A DNA stretch of 24,000 bases, taken from the NCBI RefSeq assembly GCF_001563475.1, contig NZ_LPUT01000003.1, forward strand, positions 19,632 to 43,631. Direction: 5' to 3'. The position numbers were made by a program, and so were the translations under genes. Below the pieces are notes generated by a model that was given only the letters and a program-made list of their open reading frames with translations, searched no databases and had not been told where the DNA came from. Shown one piece after another: positions 4,904 through 20,883 of the stretch. Every line of letters starts with the position of its first letter. Positions within the stretch are counted from its first letter, which is position 1. The DNA comes from Sporosarcina sp. HYO08. Its GTDB lineage: Bacteria > Bacillota > Bacilli > Bacillales_A > Planococcaceae.

Positions 4904-5915
4904 ACAGCAATTTCTTATGGAACTGGAGAATGCGTTGAAGCGGCTGCCATCTGATGAGCGGAATGATATACTCCAGGACATTCGCGAATATTTTATGGAT
5001 GGTCGGGAAGATGGAAAAACGGACGCGGAAATTGCGGCTTCGCTTGGTTCGCCGATTGGCATTGCAGAAGAGCTGCTTGCTGCTTATGATTTTTCGGAAG
5101 CTGAAGTGAATACTCCTTCTGCGAATGAATTGATGACAATTGAAAAGCTTTATAAAAATATTAATATTGACGTACAGCACGGTGCATTAACGATTATGCC
5201 TTCATTGGGTGATGTGACGACGATAGAGTTGGTCGGACGACAAGATAAAATGCAGCTGACGGCGGATGTCATTGCGGATACGCTACATGTAAACTTGCAT
5301 GGATCATGGCTTTGGTCTTTCATGTTCGGCCTTCGTTCCGTAACCGTCAATGTATTGATGCCAAAGAAACTGTATGAAACGGTGACGGTCAAATCGGATA
5401 ATGGAAAAATCGCAGCTGAAAAATTGCTTGGGCAAAGAATCAACATTCGATCCAAGAATGGGCGCATCTCGTTAACCGAAATGGCCGCATCTTCGCTCAG
5501 TGCTGAGACGAACAATGGACGAATTGATATTGCAAAAGTGCAAACTGACAGGCTGCAAGCGAAGACGGATAATGGACGGATTGAGCTTCGGGCAATTGAA
5601 GCCGAGCATATCGCGGTGGAGTCTGATAACGGGCGCATCCAAATGGTTCAAGTGTCCGGCGACATAACCGGCACGACGGATAACGGACGGATTTCGCTTC
5701 AGACGGATCATCTGGATCGAAATATCGATTTGCAGACGGACAATGGCAGCATTGAACTCCAATCGGATATGAAGCCGACGAATGTGGACATTCGGGCAAA
5801 GACGAATCATGGCCGAGTGGATGTCTTTGGCGGGCGCAATTCACGCACGGTCATTGGTGCTGGGGAAAATGTGATTCGACTGAAGTCTGCGAATGGGCGG
5901 ATTACGGTGGGTTGA
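4896..5915 (+). CDS. DUF1700 (HAAS-type, PadR-associated) N-terminal domain fused to a DUF4097 beta-helix repeat domain
   Basis: ATG 4896 overlaps the PadR stop and follows AAGGAGAG. N-terminus is MTEQQFLMELENALKRLPSDERNDILQDIREYF. The C-terminal half carries about 10 repeats of the [DN]NG[RK]I motif typical of DUF4097. Confidence 0.75.
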   Translation: MTEQQFLMELENALKRLPSDERNDILQDIREYFMDGREDGKTDAEIAASLGSPIGIAEELLAAYDFSEAEVNTPSANELMTIEKLYKNINIDVQHGALTIMPSLGDVTTIELVGRQDKMQLTADVIADTLHVNLHGSWLWSFMFGLRSVTVNVLMPKKLYETVTVKSDNGKIAAEKLLGQRINIRSKNGRISLTEMAASSLSAETNNGRIDIAKVQTDRLQAKTDNGRIELRAIEAEHIAVESDNGRIQMVQVSGDITGTTDNGRISLQTDHLDRNIDLQTDNGSIELQSDMKPTNVDIRAKTNHGRVDVFGGRNSRTVIGAGENVIRLKSANGRITVG

Positions 5916-6104
5916 GGGGAACTCGGCTGGCGTTGCGGGAAACTCAGGCGCTGTTGAGGGGAACTCGACTGGCGTTGCGGGTAACTCGGGCGCTGTTGGG
6001 GGGAACTCGGCTGGCGTTGCGGGGAACTCGACTGGCGTTGCGGGGAACTCAAGCGCTATTGAGGGGAACTCGACCACCTTTGCGGGAAACTCGCTCCAAA
6101 CTGG
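5916..6104. repeat. Tandem array of 9 x 21 bp (consensus GGGGAACTCGRCTGGCGTTGC alternating with GGGRAACTCRGGCGCTGTTGR)
   Basis: Units start at 5916, 5937, 5958, 5979, 6000, 6021, 6042, 6063 and 6084. Units 1 and 5 are identical, and units 3 and 6 are identical. The array starts one base after the stop codon of the DUF4097 gene and ends before the terminator at 6127. Confidence 0.9.
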
Positions 6105-6126
6105 CTGCATAAGTTACACATAGCAC

Positions 6127-6165
6127 AAGCAGTGTCTCCCCTAACATGGAACACTGCTTTTGTTT
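6127..6165 (+). terminator. Intrinsic terminator after the PadR operon and repeat array
   Basis: Stem AAGCAGTGT (6127-6135) / ACACTGCTT (6151-6159), then TTTTGTTT. Confidence 0.6.
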
Positions 6166-6231
6166 ATTCCTAAAATTATCACACTAGTCTGTCAAAACGT
6201 GGTAGTATAGATAAAAGGGGGATGGACGACC

Positions 6232-6825
6232 ATGGACTTATCGCAAATGAGGAAAAATCTATCGATCAAAAGTAAAAACGGCATTTCCTTTTTGATGGCG
6301 GGATCAGTGATCTGGGGGTTAATCACCGTCATCTATTTGCTGCCATTGGACATCCGGGAACAGAATCTTTTGATGTTATTTTCAACGGGGTTAATGTTTC
6401 CGCTTTCAATTGTGTTCTCCAAACTGTTGCACATCGATTGGAAATCGAAAGACAATCCATTAGGGGAATTGGGTTTGTATTTGAATTTGGCGCAATTGGT
6501 CTATTTTCCAATGTTGTTTTGGATGTTCGTTTCTAGTCCGTATGAAATGAACCTATTTTTTGCGATGATTACAGCCGCGCATTTCTTTCCTTTTGGCTGG
6601 CTTTACCGGACAAAGCTGTATACGACTTTTTCGCCGATCATCGTCTTGCTCGTTTTTTTCATTGGCACGAATTTGAATGGTGAAAATTTGTGGATGATCC
6701 CTTGCACAATGCTCGTTTCGCTCACTTTCTTAAACGTTTTCCTTTTTGTGGATTATCGAAAAAAGGCGGAGCATATGTCTAAACAGATGAAGGGGTTACA
6801 GTTTACGGTGAAAGGTGAAATTTGA
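6232..6825 (+). CDS. Polytopic integral membrane protein, function unknown
   Basis: 197 aa with about 6 predicted TM helices. AAAGGGGGA RBS lies upstream of ATG 6232. I recognise no family motif. Confidence 0.6.
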   Translation: MDLSQMRKNLSIKSKNGISFLMAGSVIWGLITVIYLLPLDIREQNLLMLFSTGLMFPLSIVFSKLLHIDWKSKDNPLGELGLYLNLAQLVYFPMLFWMFVSSPYEMNLFFAMITAAHFFPFGWLYRTKLYTTFSPIIVLLVFFIGTNLNGENLWMIPCTMLVSLTFLNVFLFVDYRKKAEHMSKQMKGLQFTVKGEI

Positions 6826-6831
6826 ACATTG

Positions 6832-6866
6832 AAAAACGCTTGGGTGAATTTTTTCCAAGCGTTTTT
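6832..6866. terminator. Bidirectional intrinsic terminator
   Basis: AAAAACGCTTGG (6832-6843) / CCAAGCGTTTTT (6855-6866), with A/T runs on both sides, between convergent genes. Confidence 0.75.
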
Positions 6867-6876
6867 GTTTTGCCTA

Positions 6877-7110
6877 TTAACTGTTGATGGAATTCATGAT
6901 ATCTGATTCTACATTTTTAACGTTTTGTTCGCCGACGCGTTTTTTAATTTCCTCTTCGGAAAGCGGCGGTGGAATTTCATCGAATGACATGGCGATTTCT
7001 TCTTTTGGAATTTCTACGTTTTCATACTGGGCGCTTCTGGCATTAATTTCACGGCCATATCTTTCCGCTTCTTCGACTGTCATACGGTTGTTTTCGGGTT
7101 TTTTAAACAA
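6877..7110 (-). CDS. Small acidic hypothetical protein (77 aa)
   Basis: ORF sits between a terminator and a plausible upstream region. Sequence is Glu-rich and not recognised. Confidence 0.5.
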   Translation of the reverse strand: MFKKPENNRMTVEEAERYGREINARSAQYENVEIPKEEIAMSFDEIPPPLSEEEIKKRVGEQNVKNVESDIMNSINS

Positions 7111-7812: not shown

Positions 7813-7987
7813 GCTGTGTGTTTTGCGATTGGTTGGTGACTAGGGCGCTTTGGTTGGACACTTAGCGCTCCCCATCATTTTTCCCTCTAGTCATCTTTTG
7901 TACAAGTCTCACGTACTGTGTGTAAAGCATTTCTTTCGTAAAACGATAATTACGCGGATGCCCCATCATAATTTTGGAGGTAAGCCT

Positions 7988-9067
7988 ATGCCTAAAATTG
8001 TATCGGTCCGTTCGTTCAAGCCGCCGTATGAAGTAAAGCAAGAAGAGGCCACCGAGTTGACGCGCTCCTTATTCAGCGAAAAATATAAAGACATCGAACG
8101 GCTGTTGACCGTTTTTCAAAATGGCGACATCGAAACGCGCCATGTTTGTATGCCGATTGAGTGGTATGCCAAAGATCATGATTTTGAAGAGCGTAATGAT
8201 TTGTATATTGAACATGCGGTCGATTATGGGATTCAAGCGGTTTTGTCTTGTTTGGAAGGAAGTGGAACACTGGAAACATCAGTGGACCCTTCACTCATTG
8301 ACGCCATTTTCTTCATCTCCAGCAGCGGACTTGCGACACCAAGCATTGATGCGCGCATTATGAACCGGATTCTGTTTCGGGATGATGTGAAGCGGATTCC
8401 GATTTGGGGACTTGGTTGTGCGGGCGGGGCTGCGGGGTTGAGTCGGGCGTATGAATATTGCCTCGCATTTCCGAAGGCGAATGTGCTTGTGCTGTCTGTG
8501 GAATTATGCAGTTTGACGTTTCAAAAAGATGATTATTCCAAAAGTAATTTAGTCGGCGTGTCATTGTTTTCAGACGGGGTTGCTTGTGCGCTTGTCGTTG
8601 GCGATCAATCTCCGATTCAAGCGAATCAAGCGGTTCCTTCGATCATCGCGACAACTTCCAAACTTATGCCGGAGTCAGAAAACGTCATGGGGTGGGATGT
8701 GAAAAACAATGGATTATACGTCGTTTTCTCAAAAAGCATCCCCGCCATTATTACAAATTGGCTTGGTCCATTTGTGCATACTTTTTTGAATGAACATGGT
8801 TTATCCAAAGACGATATCACCCATTTCGTCGCACATCCAGGCGGCAAAAAAATATTGACGGCCTACGAAGAAGCGCTTGGATTTAATGAAAATATGACAG
8901 AAATTTCTCGGGAAATATTACGAGAAAATGGCAACATGTCTTCCCCGACCGTTTTATATGTACTGGAAAAGTTTATGCAAAGTGAAGCGACTGCAGGTGA
9001 TTTTGGATTAATGGCAGCACTTGGCCCCGGTTTTTGCGGCGAGTTGCTGTTGCTAAAGTGGGAGTGA
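7988..9067 (+). CDS. bpsA: Type III polyketide synthase (chalcone-synthase superfamily, BpsA-like)
   Basis: ATG 7988 follows GGAGG. Cys-His-Asn triad contexts are present: WGLGCAGGAAGL, FVAHPGGKKIL and ENGNMSSPTVL. The ICMT-type methyltransferase gene follows, as in B. subtilis bpsA-bpsB(ypbQ). Confidence 0.85.
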   Translation: MPKIVSVRSFKPPYEVKQEEATELTRSLFSEKYKDIERLLTVFQNGDIETRHVCMPIEWYAKDHDFEERNDLYIEHAVDYGIQAVLSCLEGSGTLETSVDPSLIDAIFFISSSGLATPSIDARIMNRILFRDDVKRIPIWGLGCAGGAAGLSRAYEYCLAFPKANVLVLSVELCSLTFQKDDYSKSNLVGVSLFSDGVACALVVGDQSPIQANQAVPSIIATTSKLMPESENVMGWDVKNNGLYVVFSKSIPAIITNWLGPFVHTFLNEHGLSKDDITHFVAHPGGKKILTAYEEALGFNENMTEISREILRENGNMSSPTVLYVLEKFMQSEATAGDFGLMAALGPGFCGELLLLKWE

Positions 9068-9077
9068 GGAAGCGCCT

Positions 9078-9620
9078 ATGATCTTTGCATCCGTCATGAT
9101 ATTCGTCATTTTACAGCGGCTTGTGGAATTGTTCATCGCCAAACGAAACGAGAAATGGATGTTAAACCAAGGCGCTTTCGAAGTAGGTGCCGCCCATTAT
9201 CCGGCCATGGTCGTCATGCATATTTCATTTTTTGCCACGCTCATCATTGAAGTGACGTTGTTCGATCGAGCCTTATCCCCGCTTTTAGATTACTTATTTG
9301 GCGCTTTTTTATTATTACAGACCGCAAGAATTTGGTGTCTCACTTCTTTAGGTCGATTTTGGAACACGAAAATCATCATTTTACCTGGTGCTGAAGTTGT
9401 TCGAAAAGGGCCGTATCGCTTTATGCGGCACCCGAATTATACGATCGTTACACTTGAATTACTTATCCTTCCCCTACTATTCAGCGCGTATCTCACCACG
9501 ATTATTTTCGCGGTGCTTAACGCCTGGATGCTGTCGATTCGGATACCGGCGGAGGAAAAGGCGCTACGGGAAGCGACGGATTATGGACAGACCATGTTAC
9601 GTGCCACTTCGAAGGAGTAA
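9078..9620 (+). CDS. bpsB: Isoprenylcysteine carboxyl methyltransferase-family membrane methyltransferase (BpsB/YpbQ-like)
   Basis: 180 aa, multi-TM. Has the motif GPYRFMRHPNY...E..ILP and starts 10 nt after the bpsA stop. Confidence 0.8.
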   Translation: MIFASVMIFVILQRLVELFIAKRNEKWMLNQGAFEVGAAHYPAMVVMHISFFATLIIEVTLFDRALSPLLDYLFGAFLLLQTARIWCLTSLGRFWNTKIIILPGAEVVRKGPYRFMRHPNYTIVTLELLILPLLFSAYLTTIIFAVLNAWMLSIRIPAEEKALREATDYGQTMLRATSKE

Positions 9621-9656
9621 GTGCAACTTTGCCATTGTAAGTGCAACTCTCTTCAT
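9617..9656. repeat. 2 x 20 bp tandem repeat GTAAGTGCAACT-N8
   Basis: GTAAGTGCAACTTTGCCATT / GTAAGTGCAACTCTCTTCAT. The TAA of the first unit is the bpsB stop codon (9618-9620). Confidence 0.75.
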
Positions 9657-9663
9657 TCACCCA

Positions 9664-9711
9664 TAAAAAATAACCCATCTTGATTGAGTAACTCGATGGG
9701 TTATCCCTATC
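9664..9711. terminator. Terminator-like hairpin, left copy of a duplicated element
   Basis: 10-bp stem ATAACCCATC-type (9670-9679 / 9695-9704). An A-run lies directly upstream, so it is a good minus-strand terminator. On the plus strand the T-run (9711-9717) is 7 nt from the stem. Confidence 0.6.
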
Positions 9712-9770
9712 TTTTTTCTTTTTAAAAGCTATATACTGTCATTGTTCAATGAGTCAAAATAGCAAACCCC

Positions 9771-9779
9771 TGTTATAAT
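9771..9779 (+). promoter_or_regulatory. Candidate extended -10 promoter for the orphan ORF
   Basis: TGtTATAAT at 9771-9779. I found no convincing -35. Confidence 0.35.
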
Positions 9780-9850
9780 TAAAACCTCATATTCTTTTAG
9801 ATACATTTGTTATATACTAGGACTAGTATCCTAAAAAGGTTGTAAGATAT

Positions 9851-10270
9851 ATGACAATAAGTATAAATATAAGTGCTACCAAAACCCAGTTAGTTGGAAT
9901 TATTCCAAAGTGTATTATCGATTATTATTCTATTCAATGTTCTAATTTTGAAGTTTATATGCCGCCCGGCGTTTTAAAACATTTAAAAAAACGAGGTCAC
10001 TGGGGCGACTTTGAAAGGTATTATCATGAAATACCTCGTATGATTGCCGAACCTGATTATGCTGGTCAAAATCCAAAAGAGCCAAATTCAGTGGAATTGT
10101 ACAAAATTCTAAGCGATCATGTGATCCTGCCAATAAAATTAAATATAGAAACTGGTTTATTTTTGAGCTCTTTTTATACCTTAGATAACGGGGTTGAGAA
10201 AATTCAAAAGCGATTAAGAACCGGACGTATTTACCCTTTTTCATTCTTTACAAACCAAGCAAAATCATAA
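9851..10270 (+). CDS. Orphan 139-aa protein, possible BECR-fold (PBECR-like) nuclease/toxin domain
   Basis: About 30% GC. The pattern VYMPPGVLKHLKKRGHW..F..YYHEIPRMIAEPDYAGQNPKEPNSVELYK....HVILPIKLN...GLFLSSFYTL......IQKRLRTGRIYPF resembles, from memory, phage/ICE-associated PBECR nuclease domains (H-x-H-type block, PDY.G.NP block, C-terminal GR[IL]). Confidence 0.5.
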   Translation: MTISINISATKTQLVGIIPKCIIDYYSIQCSNFEVYMPPGVLKHLKKRGHWGDFERYYHEIPRMIAEPDYAGQNPKEPNSVELYKILSDHVILPIKLNIETGLFLSSFYTLDNGVEKIQKRLRTGRIYPFSFFTNQAKS

Positions 10271-10367
10271 CAATTGTTTACAAATAACGCATGCTAGTGT
10301 ATTATAATAAGTGAGAAGAATTGTTATTTAGTTGGTTATTTAGACAAAATCATGAATATATTAAATA

Positions 10368-10462
10368 CATAAAGGTTATTTGAGGTGGGAAAGGTTCCCC
10401 ACGCGCTATCTTATTGATAGTTACCAGAGATCAGGATTGCCGCCCTGCTTATAACCTTTATG
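10368..10462 (+). ncRNA. Candidate structured RNA: 12-bp closing stem enclosing three hairpins (cloverleaf-like); class unknown
   Basis: P1 is 10368-10379 / 10451-10462, 12 perfect bp. Hairpins: GTGGGAA-AGG-TTC(C)CCAC (10385-10402), CTATC-TTATT-GATAG (10406-10420), CAGG-N8-CCTG (10432-10447). It lies upstream of the plus-strand-only terminator at 10471. Confidence 0.35.
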
Positions 10463-10470
10463 ACTGAGAT

Positions 10471-10500
10471 ACCCTCTTCATTCATGAAGAGGGTTCTTTT
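10471..10500 (+). terminator. Strong plus-strand intrinsic terminator
   Basis: ACCCTCTTCA (10471-10480) / TGAAGAGGGT (10485-10494), followed by TCTTTTT. There is no T-run in the opposite orientation. Confidence 0.8.
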
Positions 10501-10560
10501 TATCCTAAATAAGGATACTTTATTTGAATAGATCCCAATCTTGATTCTATCCTTTATCCG

Positions 10561-10605
10561 TAAAAAATAACCCATCTGCTCAAATTCAGATGGGCTATCC
10601 CTATC
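10561..10605 (-). terminator. Terminator of the NhaC-family gene; right copy of the duplicated hairpin
   Basis: Same arms as 9664-9711: TAAAAAATAACCCATCT is 17/17 identical and GATGGGCTATCCCTATC is 16/17. On the minus strand the stem is followed by TTTTTTAC. Confidence 0.75.
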
Positions 10606-10647
10606 AAATGTCGATCCCATTACGTGTACAGCGATTTAAAATCCCTA

Positions 10648-12027
10648 TCACTTCTCATACGTCAACGTCTTCCCAGCCATTCCAAACAACACAGTTAACA
10701 CTGGTGACAACAGGCAAAAGAATGCAAATGGCAAGTATGCGAGCGTCGGGACATCGAGCACGTTCGTAATGAAAATACCACACACACTCCATGGGACGAG
10801 CGGGTTGACGACGGTTCCGGCGTCTTCCATCACACGGCTCAAGTTTTTGCCAGCTAAGCCGAGTTTTTCATATTGCGCTTGAAACGCTTGGCCGGTTAAT
10901 AAAATCGATAAGTATTGCTCACCGATCAAAACGTTGATGCCGATCGCGGTGAGCGCTGATGCAAAGATGACAGATGCTGCTTTTTTCAGCATGCTCTCGA
11001 TTTTGCCAAGGAGGCACTGGACGATGCCGAGCGTGAACAATAGTCCGCCCATGCTTAGCGCAAGCAACACGAGCCCGACGGTGAACATCATGCTGTTCAT
11101 GCCGCCCCGCGTTAACAATGCGTCAATTTCATCCATTCCGATATTTGACACATAGCCGTTGAATAGAATGCTCAACACTTCCGTCGCGCTAAACGTGTGA
11201 TGGAAGTATGAAATGACAACGGCACTCGCGGAACTGACTGCCAACGTCATCATTGCCGGCACTTTCTTGATCGATAAAATGACTAACACGATGATCGGCA
11301 ATACGGTGTACCAATGGATCATCCCCGTTTGCAAAAGTCCATCTTGGAACGCTTGAATTTTCGCTGTATCTTCAAACTGGACTTTCGGTGATAAAATCCC
11401 AAATAGGACGGCGGAAATAAGAAATGCTGGAACTGTTGTCCACGCCATATTTTTAATATGTGCGAATAAATCGACGCGAACAATGGATGATGCAAGGTTT
11501 GTTGTGTCCGAAAGCGGCGACATTTTATCCCCAAAAAAGGCACCGGAAACAATTGCGCCTGCTGTCATCGCAAGCGATACGTCGAGTACGCTCGCCATGC
11601 CAATAAACGCAACCCCTACTGTCGCGACGGTTGTCAATGAACTGCCGATCGACACACCAACAATCGATGCGACGACAAAGACGATCGCCAAGAAAAATTG
11701 CGGTGTCACTAAGTGAAAGCCTGCATAAATGAGTGTTGGAATCGTCCCGCCCATCATCCAGCTGCTAATTAAAATGCCGATGAAAAAGAATAAAAACACG
11801 GCGCTCATGCCAGCGCCCGCCCCATCGACTAACCCTTTCTCTAGCCTCTTGTATGACACTTTTTTCAACAAGCCGTAACCGATCAGCAGTAAGATGGACA
11901 GTAAAATCGGCACATGCGGCACCGCGTCAAAGAAAATAATGCTCGCGCTGATCATTGCAACGATCATCACGATTAAGGCGACAGCCTCTGAAAATTTAGG
12001 TTGAATCACTGCTTTTATTTGAAACAC
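10648..12027 (-). CDS. NhaC-family membrane transporter (annotated type: Na+/H+ antiporter; probably an amino-acid transporter given the T-box leader)
   Basis: 459 aa with about 11-12 TM helices. GTG start follows AGGAGG. I recognise it as NhaC-family by overall sequence character. A T-box leader lies directly upstream. Confidence 0.8.
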   Translation of the reverse strand: MFQIKAVIQPKFSEAVALIVMIVAMISASIIFFDAVPHVPILLSILLLIGYGLLKKVSYKRLEKGLVDGAGAGMSAVFLFFFIGILISSWMMGGTIPTLIYAGFHLVTPQFFLAIVFVVASIVGVSIGSSLTTVATVGVAFIGMASVLDVSLAMTAGAIVSGAFFGDKMSPLSDTTNLASSIVRVDLFAHIKNMAWTTVPAFLISAVLFGILSPKVQFEDTAKIQAFQDGLLQTGMIHWYTVLPIIVLVILSIKKVPAMMTLAVSSASAVVISYFHHTFSATEVLSILFNGYVSNIGMDEIDALLTRGGMNSMMFTVGLVLLALSMGGLLFTLGIVQCLLGKIESMLKKAASVIFASALTAIGINVLIGEQYLSILLTGQAFQAQYEKLGLAGKNLSRVMEDAGTVVNPLVPWSVCGIFITNVLDVPTLAYLPFAFFCLLSPVLTVLFGMAGKTLTYEK

Positions 12028-16030: not shown

Positions 16031-16128
16031 CAGATTTTGAATTGAGGCCTACAGGATGTAGGTCATGCAGTCATTGCGACAGGACGTCGCGTACTTAGAC
16101 TGCCTTCCTTAACTCCTTTCAAAATCTG
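16031..16128 (-). ncRNA. Bacillaceae-1-like RNA motif (two hairpins with RUCCU loops)
   Basis: Minus strand carries GCGAC-GUCCU-GUCGC (16090-16076) and CCUAC-AUCCU-GUAGG (16062-16048). These are enclosed by an 11-bp outer stem (16031-16041 / 16118-16128). As I recall it, the published Bacillaceae-1 motif is two stem-loops with RUCCU terminal loops. Confidence 0.5.
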
Positions 16129-20701: not shown

Positions 20702-20883
20702 AGAAAAAGCCTTTGCTCACGTAAAAATACATGAGGAAAGGCATAATTTTACAAGCACCTTTCACTCTTATCGTCCAAGGAACTATGCCTTGCATCAGGT
20801 TCGGCACCTTCGCGTTAGACTTTCGTCTTTGCAGGTTGCCGGGCTTCATAGGGCCTGATCCCTCCACCAGCTCGGGATAAGAG
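20702..20883 (-). promoter_or_regulatory. SAM-I (S-box) riboswitch with terminator
   Basis: Minus strand: CUCUUAUCccGAGcuGGuGGAGGGAucaGGCCCuaUGAAgCCCGGCAACC...GGUGCCgAAccuGA...GAUAAGAG (aptamer 20883-20765). A terminator stem follows (plus 20709-20721 / 20730-20742) with a U-run. Confidence 0.85.

Follow-up and report, generated by a model that had tools for sequence, protein, structure and literature searches.

In a stretch of 24,000 nucleotides (nt) from Sporosarcina sp. HYO08 (contig NZ_LPUT01000003.1, positions 19,632 to 43,631 of the forward strand; hereafter the window, in whose coordinates positions are given), we identified a gene for a skipping-rope RNA and, directly upstream of it on the same strand, a gene for a stand-alone PBECR3 protein, which is predicted to be a ribonuclease (RNase) of the BECR fold. 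The RNA, at 10368-10462 of the plus strand, is almost certainly a member of the Rfam family RF02924. The two genes are near-obligate neighbours among relatives of the protein, and it is very likely that skipping-rope RNAs and PBECR3 proteins are directly linked in function. Our favoured reading, held tentatively, is that the RNA is the dedicated partner of PBECR3 in a two-gene mobile module, most likely as an inhibitor that resembles a type III antitoxin.

The skipping-rope motif was described by Weinberg and colleagues in 2017, with its function unknown. In the part of that survey available to us (PMC5737381), the motif rarely lies in 5' untranslated regions (UTRs), 3' terminators are a described trait of the RNAs, and self-cleavage was undetected by the discoverers, to whom the properties of the motif suggested a "sophisticated biochemical function"; skipping-rope is among the complex bacterial and phage RNAs singled out there as likely to have an unusual biochemical role. 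A protein associated with the motif is named in the supplement. We found no later literature that assigns skipping-rope a function. Relative to the available part of the survey, our analysis adds the identity of the partner as Pfam PBECR3, a conserved promoter, covariation between two hairpin loops and the pattern of gene decay described below.

A skipping-rope RNA with its own transcription signals

When the window was compared with Rfam 15, positions 10375-10455 of the plus strand matched RF02924 along the entire model (positions 1-80 of 80), with an expect value (E) of 1.8e-11 and a score of 57.2 bits, where the gathering score is 36.7. A permissive Rfam scan of 9640-10640 gave no further credible family, and neither tRNA nor riboswitch models matched at E <= 10. 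An earlier note on this DNA saw no riboswitch or tRNA consensus in the element and counted a match to a known RNA family that explains the fold against its own reading. The covariance-model scan that it proposed has now returned a named family, although one whose function is unknown. Its description of the element itself was accurate: a 95-nt structured element lies between the stop of an open reading frame (ORF) at 10270 and a terminator, with a closing stem that is perfect over 12 nt (10368-10379 with 10451-10462, 100% complementarity) around three hairpins, which are P2, P3 and P4 of the Rfam model. The features of the RNA, all on the plus strand, are as follows.

10368-10462: skipping-rope RNA, four-way junction (RF02924, fold, covariation)
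10375-10455: Rfam core of the skipping-rope RNA (RF02924 match)
10368-10382 with 10448-10462: P1, with 12 perfect pairs, two U.U mismatches and one G-C pair
10385-10389 with 10398-10402: P2, hairpin 10385-10402
10404 with 10427, and 10405-10410 with 10416-10421: P3, hairpin 10404-10427, core 10406-10420
10432-10435 with 10444-10447: P4, hairpin 10432-10447
10393-10441: candidate tertiary contact between the P2 and P4 loops (G10393-C10441, G10394-C10440, U10395-G10439; pattern GGY:RYC)

Both the minimum free energy and the centroid structure predicted for 10360-10505 consist of the closing stem, the three hairpins and a separate terminator hairpin. This fold has an energy of -50.2 kcal/mol (z = -5.5), and none of 200 shuffled sequences was as stable. 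The score, the four covarying helices, the 3' terminator and the single protein-family neighbour, which were the defining features of RF02924 that we checked, were all found here. The window copy shares with the family the same four helices, the junction nucleotides GAGG, GGAAAGG and GAGAU, the 3' intrinsic terminator, a neighbouring gene of one protein family and the range across Bacillota and phages; set against the available part of the family description it shows no structural difference, and it is an ordinary member, one among many.

For comparative analysis, we built a covariance model (R1) from 25 copies in Bacilli, using the helices of the window as its structure, and aligned 28 matches to it. 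This model-based alignment replaced one made with plain MAFFT, which placed the rows from Clostridia one column off and gave a meaningless RNAalifold consensus. Among the 28 homologues, standard pairs occupy 92% of the cells and 25 of the 31 pairs have changed on both sides. The covariation score was 0.518 against a mean of 0.150 after shuffling, and no shuffle of the columns in 500 reached the observed value; when the 3' partners were slid by one to three columns, the score dropped from 0.52 to 0.05-0.10. An alignment fitted to the model favours the structure, and the margin is large. Within P1 alone, covariation spans about 12 pairs. The compensatory change that the earlier note suggested looking for in homologous cassettes is thus present. 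R1 covers Bacilli only and is too narrow, recovering one of the seven Clostridia variants, and therefore matches on viral contigs were checked with a helix descriptor written in Python and with Rfam.

The loops of P2 and P4 are likely to touch, judging from their sequences. The triplets that form the GGY:RYC pattern can pair in 106 of 107 distinct skipping-rope RNAs, and an A at the P4-loop position is found only where the P2 loop carries U (17 against 0; Fisher p = 1.4e-7, uncorrected for phylogeny).

The cloverleaf topology with touching loops 1 and 3 is the sole resemblance of skipping-rope RNA to tRNA. Both have a four-way junction, and a GG dinucleotide allows loops 1 and 3 to pair in the way that the D and T loops pair at the tRNA elbow. 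However, P1 measures 12-15 bp against 7 in tRNA, the signatures of the T loop and the anticodon loop are absent, and the middle hairpin (P3) differs in length among copies and is all but missing from the Clostridia variants. ARAGORN called no tRNA gene in the window and tRNA models gave no match at E <= 10 in 9640-10640, so that a tRNA identity was rejected; of the earlier description of the RNA as tRNA-shaped, the topology of four helices with pairable loops stands and the kinship does not. It is hardly credible that the element is a degraded tRNA, a tRNA-like element, an attachment site, a riboswitch or a self-cleaving ribozyme, even though one related locus (L022) adjoins a tRNA gene. Against a riboswitch, the plus strand has no gene downstream, in agreement with the earlier view that the RNA is non-coding and is not a cis-regulatory leader, and the motif is rare in 5' UTRs in the available part of the 2017 survey; against a ribozyme, the discoverers did not detect self-cleavage (PMC5737381).

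The RNA is flanked by transcription signals, again on the plus strand.

10277-10305: sigma-A-type promoter; -35 TTTACA (10277-10282), 17-nt spacer, -10 TATTAT (10300-10305), 10 of 12 consensus positions
10321-10343: two direct repeats, TTGTTATTTAG and TTGGTTATTTAG, read from the sequence of the predicted 5' leader
10354-10367: AT-rich box GAATATATTAAATA, abutting the 5' side of P1; (G)AATAtATTAA in Bacilli homologues
10471-10500: intrinsic terminator; 10-bp stem, 4-nt loop and U-run, with a hairpin at 10471-10494 followed by TCTTTTT (terminator scan and fold)

When the 130-nt segments preceding P1 were compared for 33 loci, each proved to have a promoter at the equivalent place. In Bacilli it reads TTTACA-N17-TAttAT, often with a preceding TG, and in Clostridia it is a near-consensus TTGACx-N17-TATAAT, which may overlap the end of the protein gene. 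The spacing had earlier been called poor, at 20 or 18 nt, but pairing TTTACA with TATTAT over 17 nt is a better choice and is the arrangement that recurs in related loci. The terminator reported earlier at 10471-10500 was called by both the scan and the fold, and a hairpin with a U-run lies just 3' of P1 in nearly every locus; three Clostridia loci have a U-run directly after P1. Since both promoter and terminator are conserved across related loci, the RNA is a gene of its own. Its transcription would start near 10312, which would give a primary transcript of about 190 nt.

The two direct repeats that had been noticed at 10321-10343 are present, are not conserved in homologous loci and are specific to this lineage; the leader is just 21-26 nt long in several loci. 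Tandem Repeats Finder found no tandem repeats in 9600-10700, and there is one RNA copy per locus. The terminator scan found no terminator between the upstream ORF (9851-10270) and the RNA, and therefore read-through from the protein gene is likely. A 69-aa ORF on the opposite strand (10411-10620) spans the 3' half of the RNA, the terminator and a flanking repeat on the right; it is most likely spurious.

Near-obligate linkage to a PBECR3 gene

The gene upstream of the RNA is the following.

9851-10270, plus strand: stand-alone PBECR3 (BECR-fold) predicted RNase, 139 aa (PF18812, homologues, AlphaFold2 (AF2) model)

The earlier note saw a toxin-like BECR ORF here, and the Pfam match bears this out: the protein belongs to PBECR3 (PF18812; score 48.3 bits, curated cut-off 30, E 1.1e-12), as do 30 of 31 aligned homologues. 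We found 99 homologues of about 135 aa, many of which are named "plasmid-related protein" and several of which are plasmid-borne. Residues P39, G40, K43, H44, W51, P68, D69, G72, N74, Y84, K96, F104 and F108 are invariant and S107 is nearly so. In the AF2 model (predicted local distance difference test score 93.6), H44, the predicted catalytic His, lies in a helix at 39-47 that is followed by strands at 70-72, 80-86, 90-98 and 102-105. PBECR domains are described, in the part of Iyer 2017 available to us (PMC5512222), as having a conserved His in an N-terminal helix and then a sheet of four to five strands with a conserved Ser or Thr, and the alignment and model show the same arrangement in this protein. 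In structure, the model resembles nuclease domains of phage MuF-C and polyvalent proteins (E 8e-6 to 7e-4, TM score 0.55-0.66), and solved RelE-like toxins are weak matches (E 0.2-0.5). The PBECR domains of phage polyvalent and MuF proteins belong to the same Pfam family, with the same His in the N-terminal helix, beta-sheet core and predicted fold, but they are parts of multidomain proteins packaged in the virion, whereas here the domain is a stand-alone protein of 139 aa accompanied by an RNA; the available part of Iyer 2017 makes no mention of an RNA partner. A profile search of 1.84 billion representative proteins returned 245 clusters, almost all of them short stand-alone proteins. There was no NCBIfam match and no informative PHROG match, and we found no sequence link between the PBECR3 family and DUF3800. 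The record from Sporosarcina sp. HYO08 (P0005) is 100% identical but is annotated as 103 aa from an internal Met, without the 36 N-terminal residues; these residues (9851-9958) are conserved in homologues, and therefore the 139-aa start at 9851 is likely to be the true one. From its sequence, the protein would be a metal-independent RNase and toxic.

We surveyed the linkage from the side of the protein using one genome per species, which gave 34 loci with relatives from 75% down to 25% identity in Bacillaceae, Paenibacillus, Brevibacillus, Laceyella, Lachnospiraceae and Oscillospiraceae. In 31 of the 34, the same strand holds a skipping-rope RNA that reaches the gathering score, and in intact loci this RNA starts 46-194 nt past the stop codon. 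Leaving out one locus that ends at a contig edge (L016), an RNA stands beside the PBECR3 gene in 32 of 33 testable loci, which ties the RNA to the toxin-like ORF as the earlier note had proposed. One of these loci (L008) has the RNA and its terminator ahead of the gene, and is the only protein-side locus with the order RNA, terminator, gene; gene order or orientation also varies in L066, L147 and L167. Of nine representatives at greater distance, one (L162) was too short to use, and the RNA was present in five of the other eight, in divergent orientation in L167.

No third component is shared by these loci. Clustering of ORFs within 2.5 kb gave no further conserved gene, and the only other recurrent genes were recombinases; in particular, the loci share neither a protein antitoxin nor an immunity gene, in line with the earlier note. 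An apparent conserved neighbour "family" was rejected, as it consisted of spurious ORFs running through the RNA gene on its own strand.

The RNA has also outlasted the gene. In three independent cases the protein gene has decayed beside an intact RNA: by a frameshift in PBECR3 with a high-scoring RNA kept (L019), by loss of the 3' half of the gene together with the RNA promoter, which leaves the RNA fused to the remnant (L020 and L021), and by loss of the 5' half of the gene, including the His helix, with the RNA kept (L022). Among close relatives, none with an intact gene lacked the RNA.

The varied positions bear on whether the RNA element affects the PBECR3 transcript in cis, either as a stabiliser in the 3' UTR or as an antisense sequence in which the 3' strand of P1 pairs with the ribosome-binding site and limits translation. 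With no terminator in the gap between ORF and RNA, read-through transcripts should carry both, and the 3' strand of P1 (10448-10459) can form 12 pairs, one of them G.U, with 9835-9846, a segment that covers the Shine-Dalgarno region; the ribosome-binding site AAAAGGTTG and the P1 sequence AAAGGTTAT recur in many Bacilli loci. However, P1 and the ribosome-binding site do not covary (mean complementary run of 7.4 within the own locus against 7.2 across loci, permutation p = 0.18), the RNA has its own promoter, and some copies lie ahead of the gene, on the other strand or where there is no such gene. We therefore regard a role in cis as quite improbable, and a purely cis antisense role is unlikely. 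The motif AAAGGTT occurs three times on the plus strand within 560 nt, at 9835 (ribosome-binding site), 10371 (5' strand of P1) and 10390 (P2 loop); across the whole window there are six copies against 4.5 expected, which is not above chance.

We also examined the linkage from the side of the RNA. A pattern scan of viral contigs gave at least 120 stretches; among the matches listed, 95 pass the helix check, and Rfam confirmed all 15 that were tested, with 57-76 bits. Neighbours were counted in the 65 distinct viral contexts listed that have at least 600 nt on both sides. A PBECR3-family gene is present in 22 of them; in nearly all it precedes the RNA on the same strand, and in two it lies downstream on the opposite strand. 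The remaining 43 contexts, about two thirds, have no PBECR3 gene in the retrieved locus, and a broader hidden Markov model built from 114 distant representatives found no hidden PBECR3 gene beside these RNAs among the matches listed. Upstream of the 43 RNAs lie diverse genes, including Fic/Doc, PemK-like, Abi_2 and tail-fibre-like ORFs. A skipping-rope RNA also stands alone on a 212-kb plasmid of B. licheniformis. A blastn search of GenBank phages with the RNA returned nothing, and a tblastn search with the PBECR3 protein returned two Streptococcus prophages.

These viral neighbourhoods favour an account in which skipping-rope is a small RNA of phages and plasmids with an unrelated role that merely shares accessory-gene spots with PBECR3, as the drum, FuFi-1, 6A and gut-2 RNAs occupy the same regions. 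Against this, gene and RNA lie side by side in 32 of 33 loci, a fixed short distance apart, down to 25% identity and across plasmids, prophages and chromosomes, with PBECR3 as the only conserved neighbour. Chance co-location is rejected on this ground, and we consider the absence of any direct link very improbable.

Several loci hold further associations. In L161 (324-1675), the gene for a PBECR3 relative (P0115) stands 44 nt ahead of one that encodes 299 aa and matches Abi_C faintly, and the RNA is absent from the 2.2-kb locus; this pair may be a protein-protein variant of the module. A family of 154-194 aa replaces PBECR3 directly upstream of skipping-rope in L089, L100, L110, L112, L115 and L148. 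It has no Pfam match, and the L089 member has a weak AbiQ match in PADLOC (E 1e-3); the family may be an alternative protein partner. In L140, two drum RNAs precede a PemK-like ORF and then skipping-rope (5703-5981, 6313-6915), and in L069 two tandem 6A RNAs precede a 140-aa ORF and then skipping-rope (5550-6327). The 140-aa ORF has no match in Pfam or PADLOC, and its N-terminus looks ToxN/AbiQ-like by eye. Skipping-rope loci also include FuFi-1 (L100, 8078-8308) and gut-2 (L083, 5033-5080), which like drum and 6A come from the 2017 survey. Potentially, such RNAs cluster with toxin genes in the accessory regions of prophages.

Possible roles of the RNA

Under the favoured reading, the RNA would fold as a rigid four-way junction whose shape is held by the contact between the P2 and P4 loops. 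PBECR3 would bind the folded RNA and thereby be kept inactive, as by a type III antitoxin or a pseudo-substrate. If the supply of RNA fell, through loss of a plasmid or a phage-induced shut-off of transcription, the RNase activity would be released, and RNA copies on phages that have no PBECR3 neighbour might neutralise such RNases in trans. Both the physical binding and its inhibitory direction are what we infer from the pattern of genes, and the inhibitory role in particular, which is drawn by analogy, we hold far more cautiously than the direct link in function.

Several points lead us to favour inhibition. A free-standing BECR RNase normally requires an immunity factor, and no protein partner is conserved beside PBECR3. 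The RNA has a strong promoter and survives where the gene has decayed, and the lone RNAs of phages make sense as protection in trans, as with pseudo-ToxI. A precedent comes from the abiF motif (RF03085), which was reported in the same 2017 survey and was later shown to be the RNA antitoxin of AbiF (bioRxiv 10.1101/2025.04.15.648962).

The module resembles type III toxin-antitoxin (TA) systems such as ToxIN, CptIN, TenpIN, AbiF-RCd22/abiF motif and AvcID. Like them, it pairs an effector that is a predicted endoribonuclease with a non-coding RNA gene and has no protein antitoxin, its RNA has a strong promoter and a terminator, it resides on plasmids and prophages, and the lone RNA copies of phages recall pseudo-ToxI. 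It differs in that the RNA is a single-copy, 95-nt four-way junction, whereas type III RNAs are tandem repeats of 34-50 nt that are processed by the toxin. In type III systems the RNA lies upstream, with a terminator between it and the toxin gene and a shared promoter, but here it usually follows the gene, as in the window and 31 related loci, and has its own promoter. The fold of the effector is BECR, not ToxN/AbiQ or HEPN, and inhibition is a prediction for this module. The module is thus not a member of type III, though by analogy it may work like one.

A number of observations weigh against the favoured reading. At L029, whose protein is among the most distant relatives (25% identity), no skipping-rope was found even at E <= 1, and none was found near the PBECR3 relatives of L161, L165/L166 and L170. 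The two thirds of the listed viral contexts that hold no PBECR3 gene point the same way, and PADLOC has no defence model that matches the PBECR3 protein. The single RNA copy, free of tandem repeats and placed after the gene, departs from the characterised type III systems, in which the RNA comes before the gene. Finally, the unpaired nucleotides of the RNA hardly vary even among loci whose proteins share as little as 25% identity, which is unusual for an antitoxin matched to its own toxin, and the RNA could therefore contact something more conserved.

The main rival to inhibition is that the RNA is a substrate or cofactor: PBECR3 would cleave skipping-rope into an active product, or would need the folded RNA as a scaffold or activator in an RNA-protein effector. 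The tight linkage speaks for this reading too, and the conserved nucleotides of the junction and loops, together with a rigid fold held by a tertiary contact, would suit a biochemical role of the kind that the discoverers' remark on function, in the available part of their survey, brings to mind (PMC5737381). The abiF RNA, moreover, relates to the CRISPR RNA-like partners of Cas13 (bioRxiv 10.1101/2025.04.15.648962). However, the variable parts of skipping-rope are its paired stems, and a variable single-stranded segment that could act as a guide is absent. The RNA also outlasts decay of the gene, and many lone RNAs occur in phages; neither is as easily explained for an RNA that has no use apart from the protein. 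Overall, we regard a substrate or cofactor role as unlikely.

Other RNAs of the 2017 survey show a comparable organisation. [quoted passage not shown]

It is a doubtful but serious prospect that the module represents a new class of RNA-controlled toxin or defence system, in which a single-copy, tRNA-like four-way junction serves as a pseudo-substrate inhibitor of a BECR RNase and phages carry decoys. If so, an RNA class that has been without a function since 2017 would gain one, and RNA antitoxins would extend to the BECR toxin superfamily. Should the RNA inhibit, it would constitute a new architecture of RNA antitoxin and would explain the phage copies that have no PBECR3 neighbour. With PBECR3 as the usual bacterial neighbour, a minimal mobile module and an RNA that persists, the hypothesis of RNA control is directly testable.

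Genomic setting and neighbouring features

In the window, the cassette forms a low-GC islet of about 0.85 kb (about 9712-10549) with 28-36% GC against about 47% in the flanks. It is bounded on either side by a copy of a hairpin repeat.

9653-9711, no strand assigned: left hairpin repeat of about 60 nt (AAAAAATAACCCATC...GATGGGTTATCCCTATC) (repeat search, pairwise alignment, terminator-like call at 9695-9711)
10550-10605, no strand assigned: right copy of the hairpin repeat (repeat search, alignment with the left copy)

The two copies are about 75% identical, with conserved stems and different loops. On the minus strand, the right copy reads as the terminator of an NhaC-like gene (10648-12027), and from its sequence the element looks like a bidirectional terminator. 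The repeats may be a duplicated target or a recombination site. An empty insertion site was sought through the ICMT-like gene (9078-9620) that flanks the islet on the left, with the NhaC-like gene on the right; no identical ICMT-like protein was on record.

Elsewhere, the module is carried on plasmids, including a 12-kb MobQ plasmid of Priestia flexa, p20 of B. mycoides and a plasmid of Macrococcoides. It also lies at the end of the Streptococcus prophage phiJH1301-1, between the lysin gene and the attachment site, where the protein is annotated "spbA".

Other features of the window were noted in passing. Upstream of the islet on the plus strand, inspection by eye suggests a type III polyketide (chalcone) synthase for the ORF at 7850-9067, which is followed by the ORF for the ICMT-like membrane methyltransferase. 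On the minus strand, a Bacillaceae-1 RNA (RF01690, 76.2 bits) lies at 16048-16114, with three further copies in L006, and a SAM-I riboswitch (RF00162, 67.4 bits) at 20765-20883.

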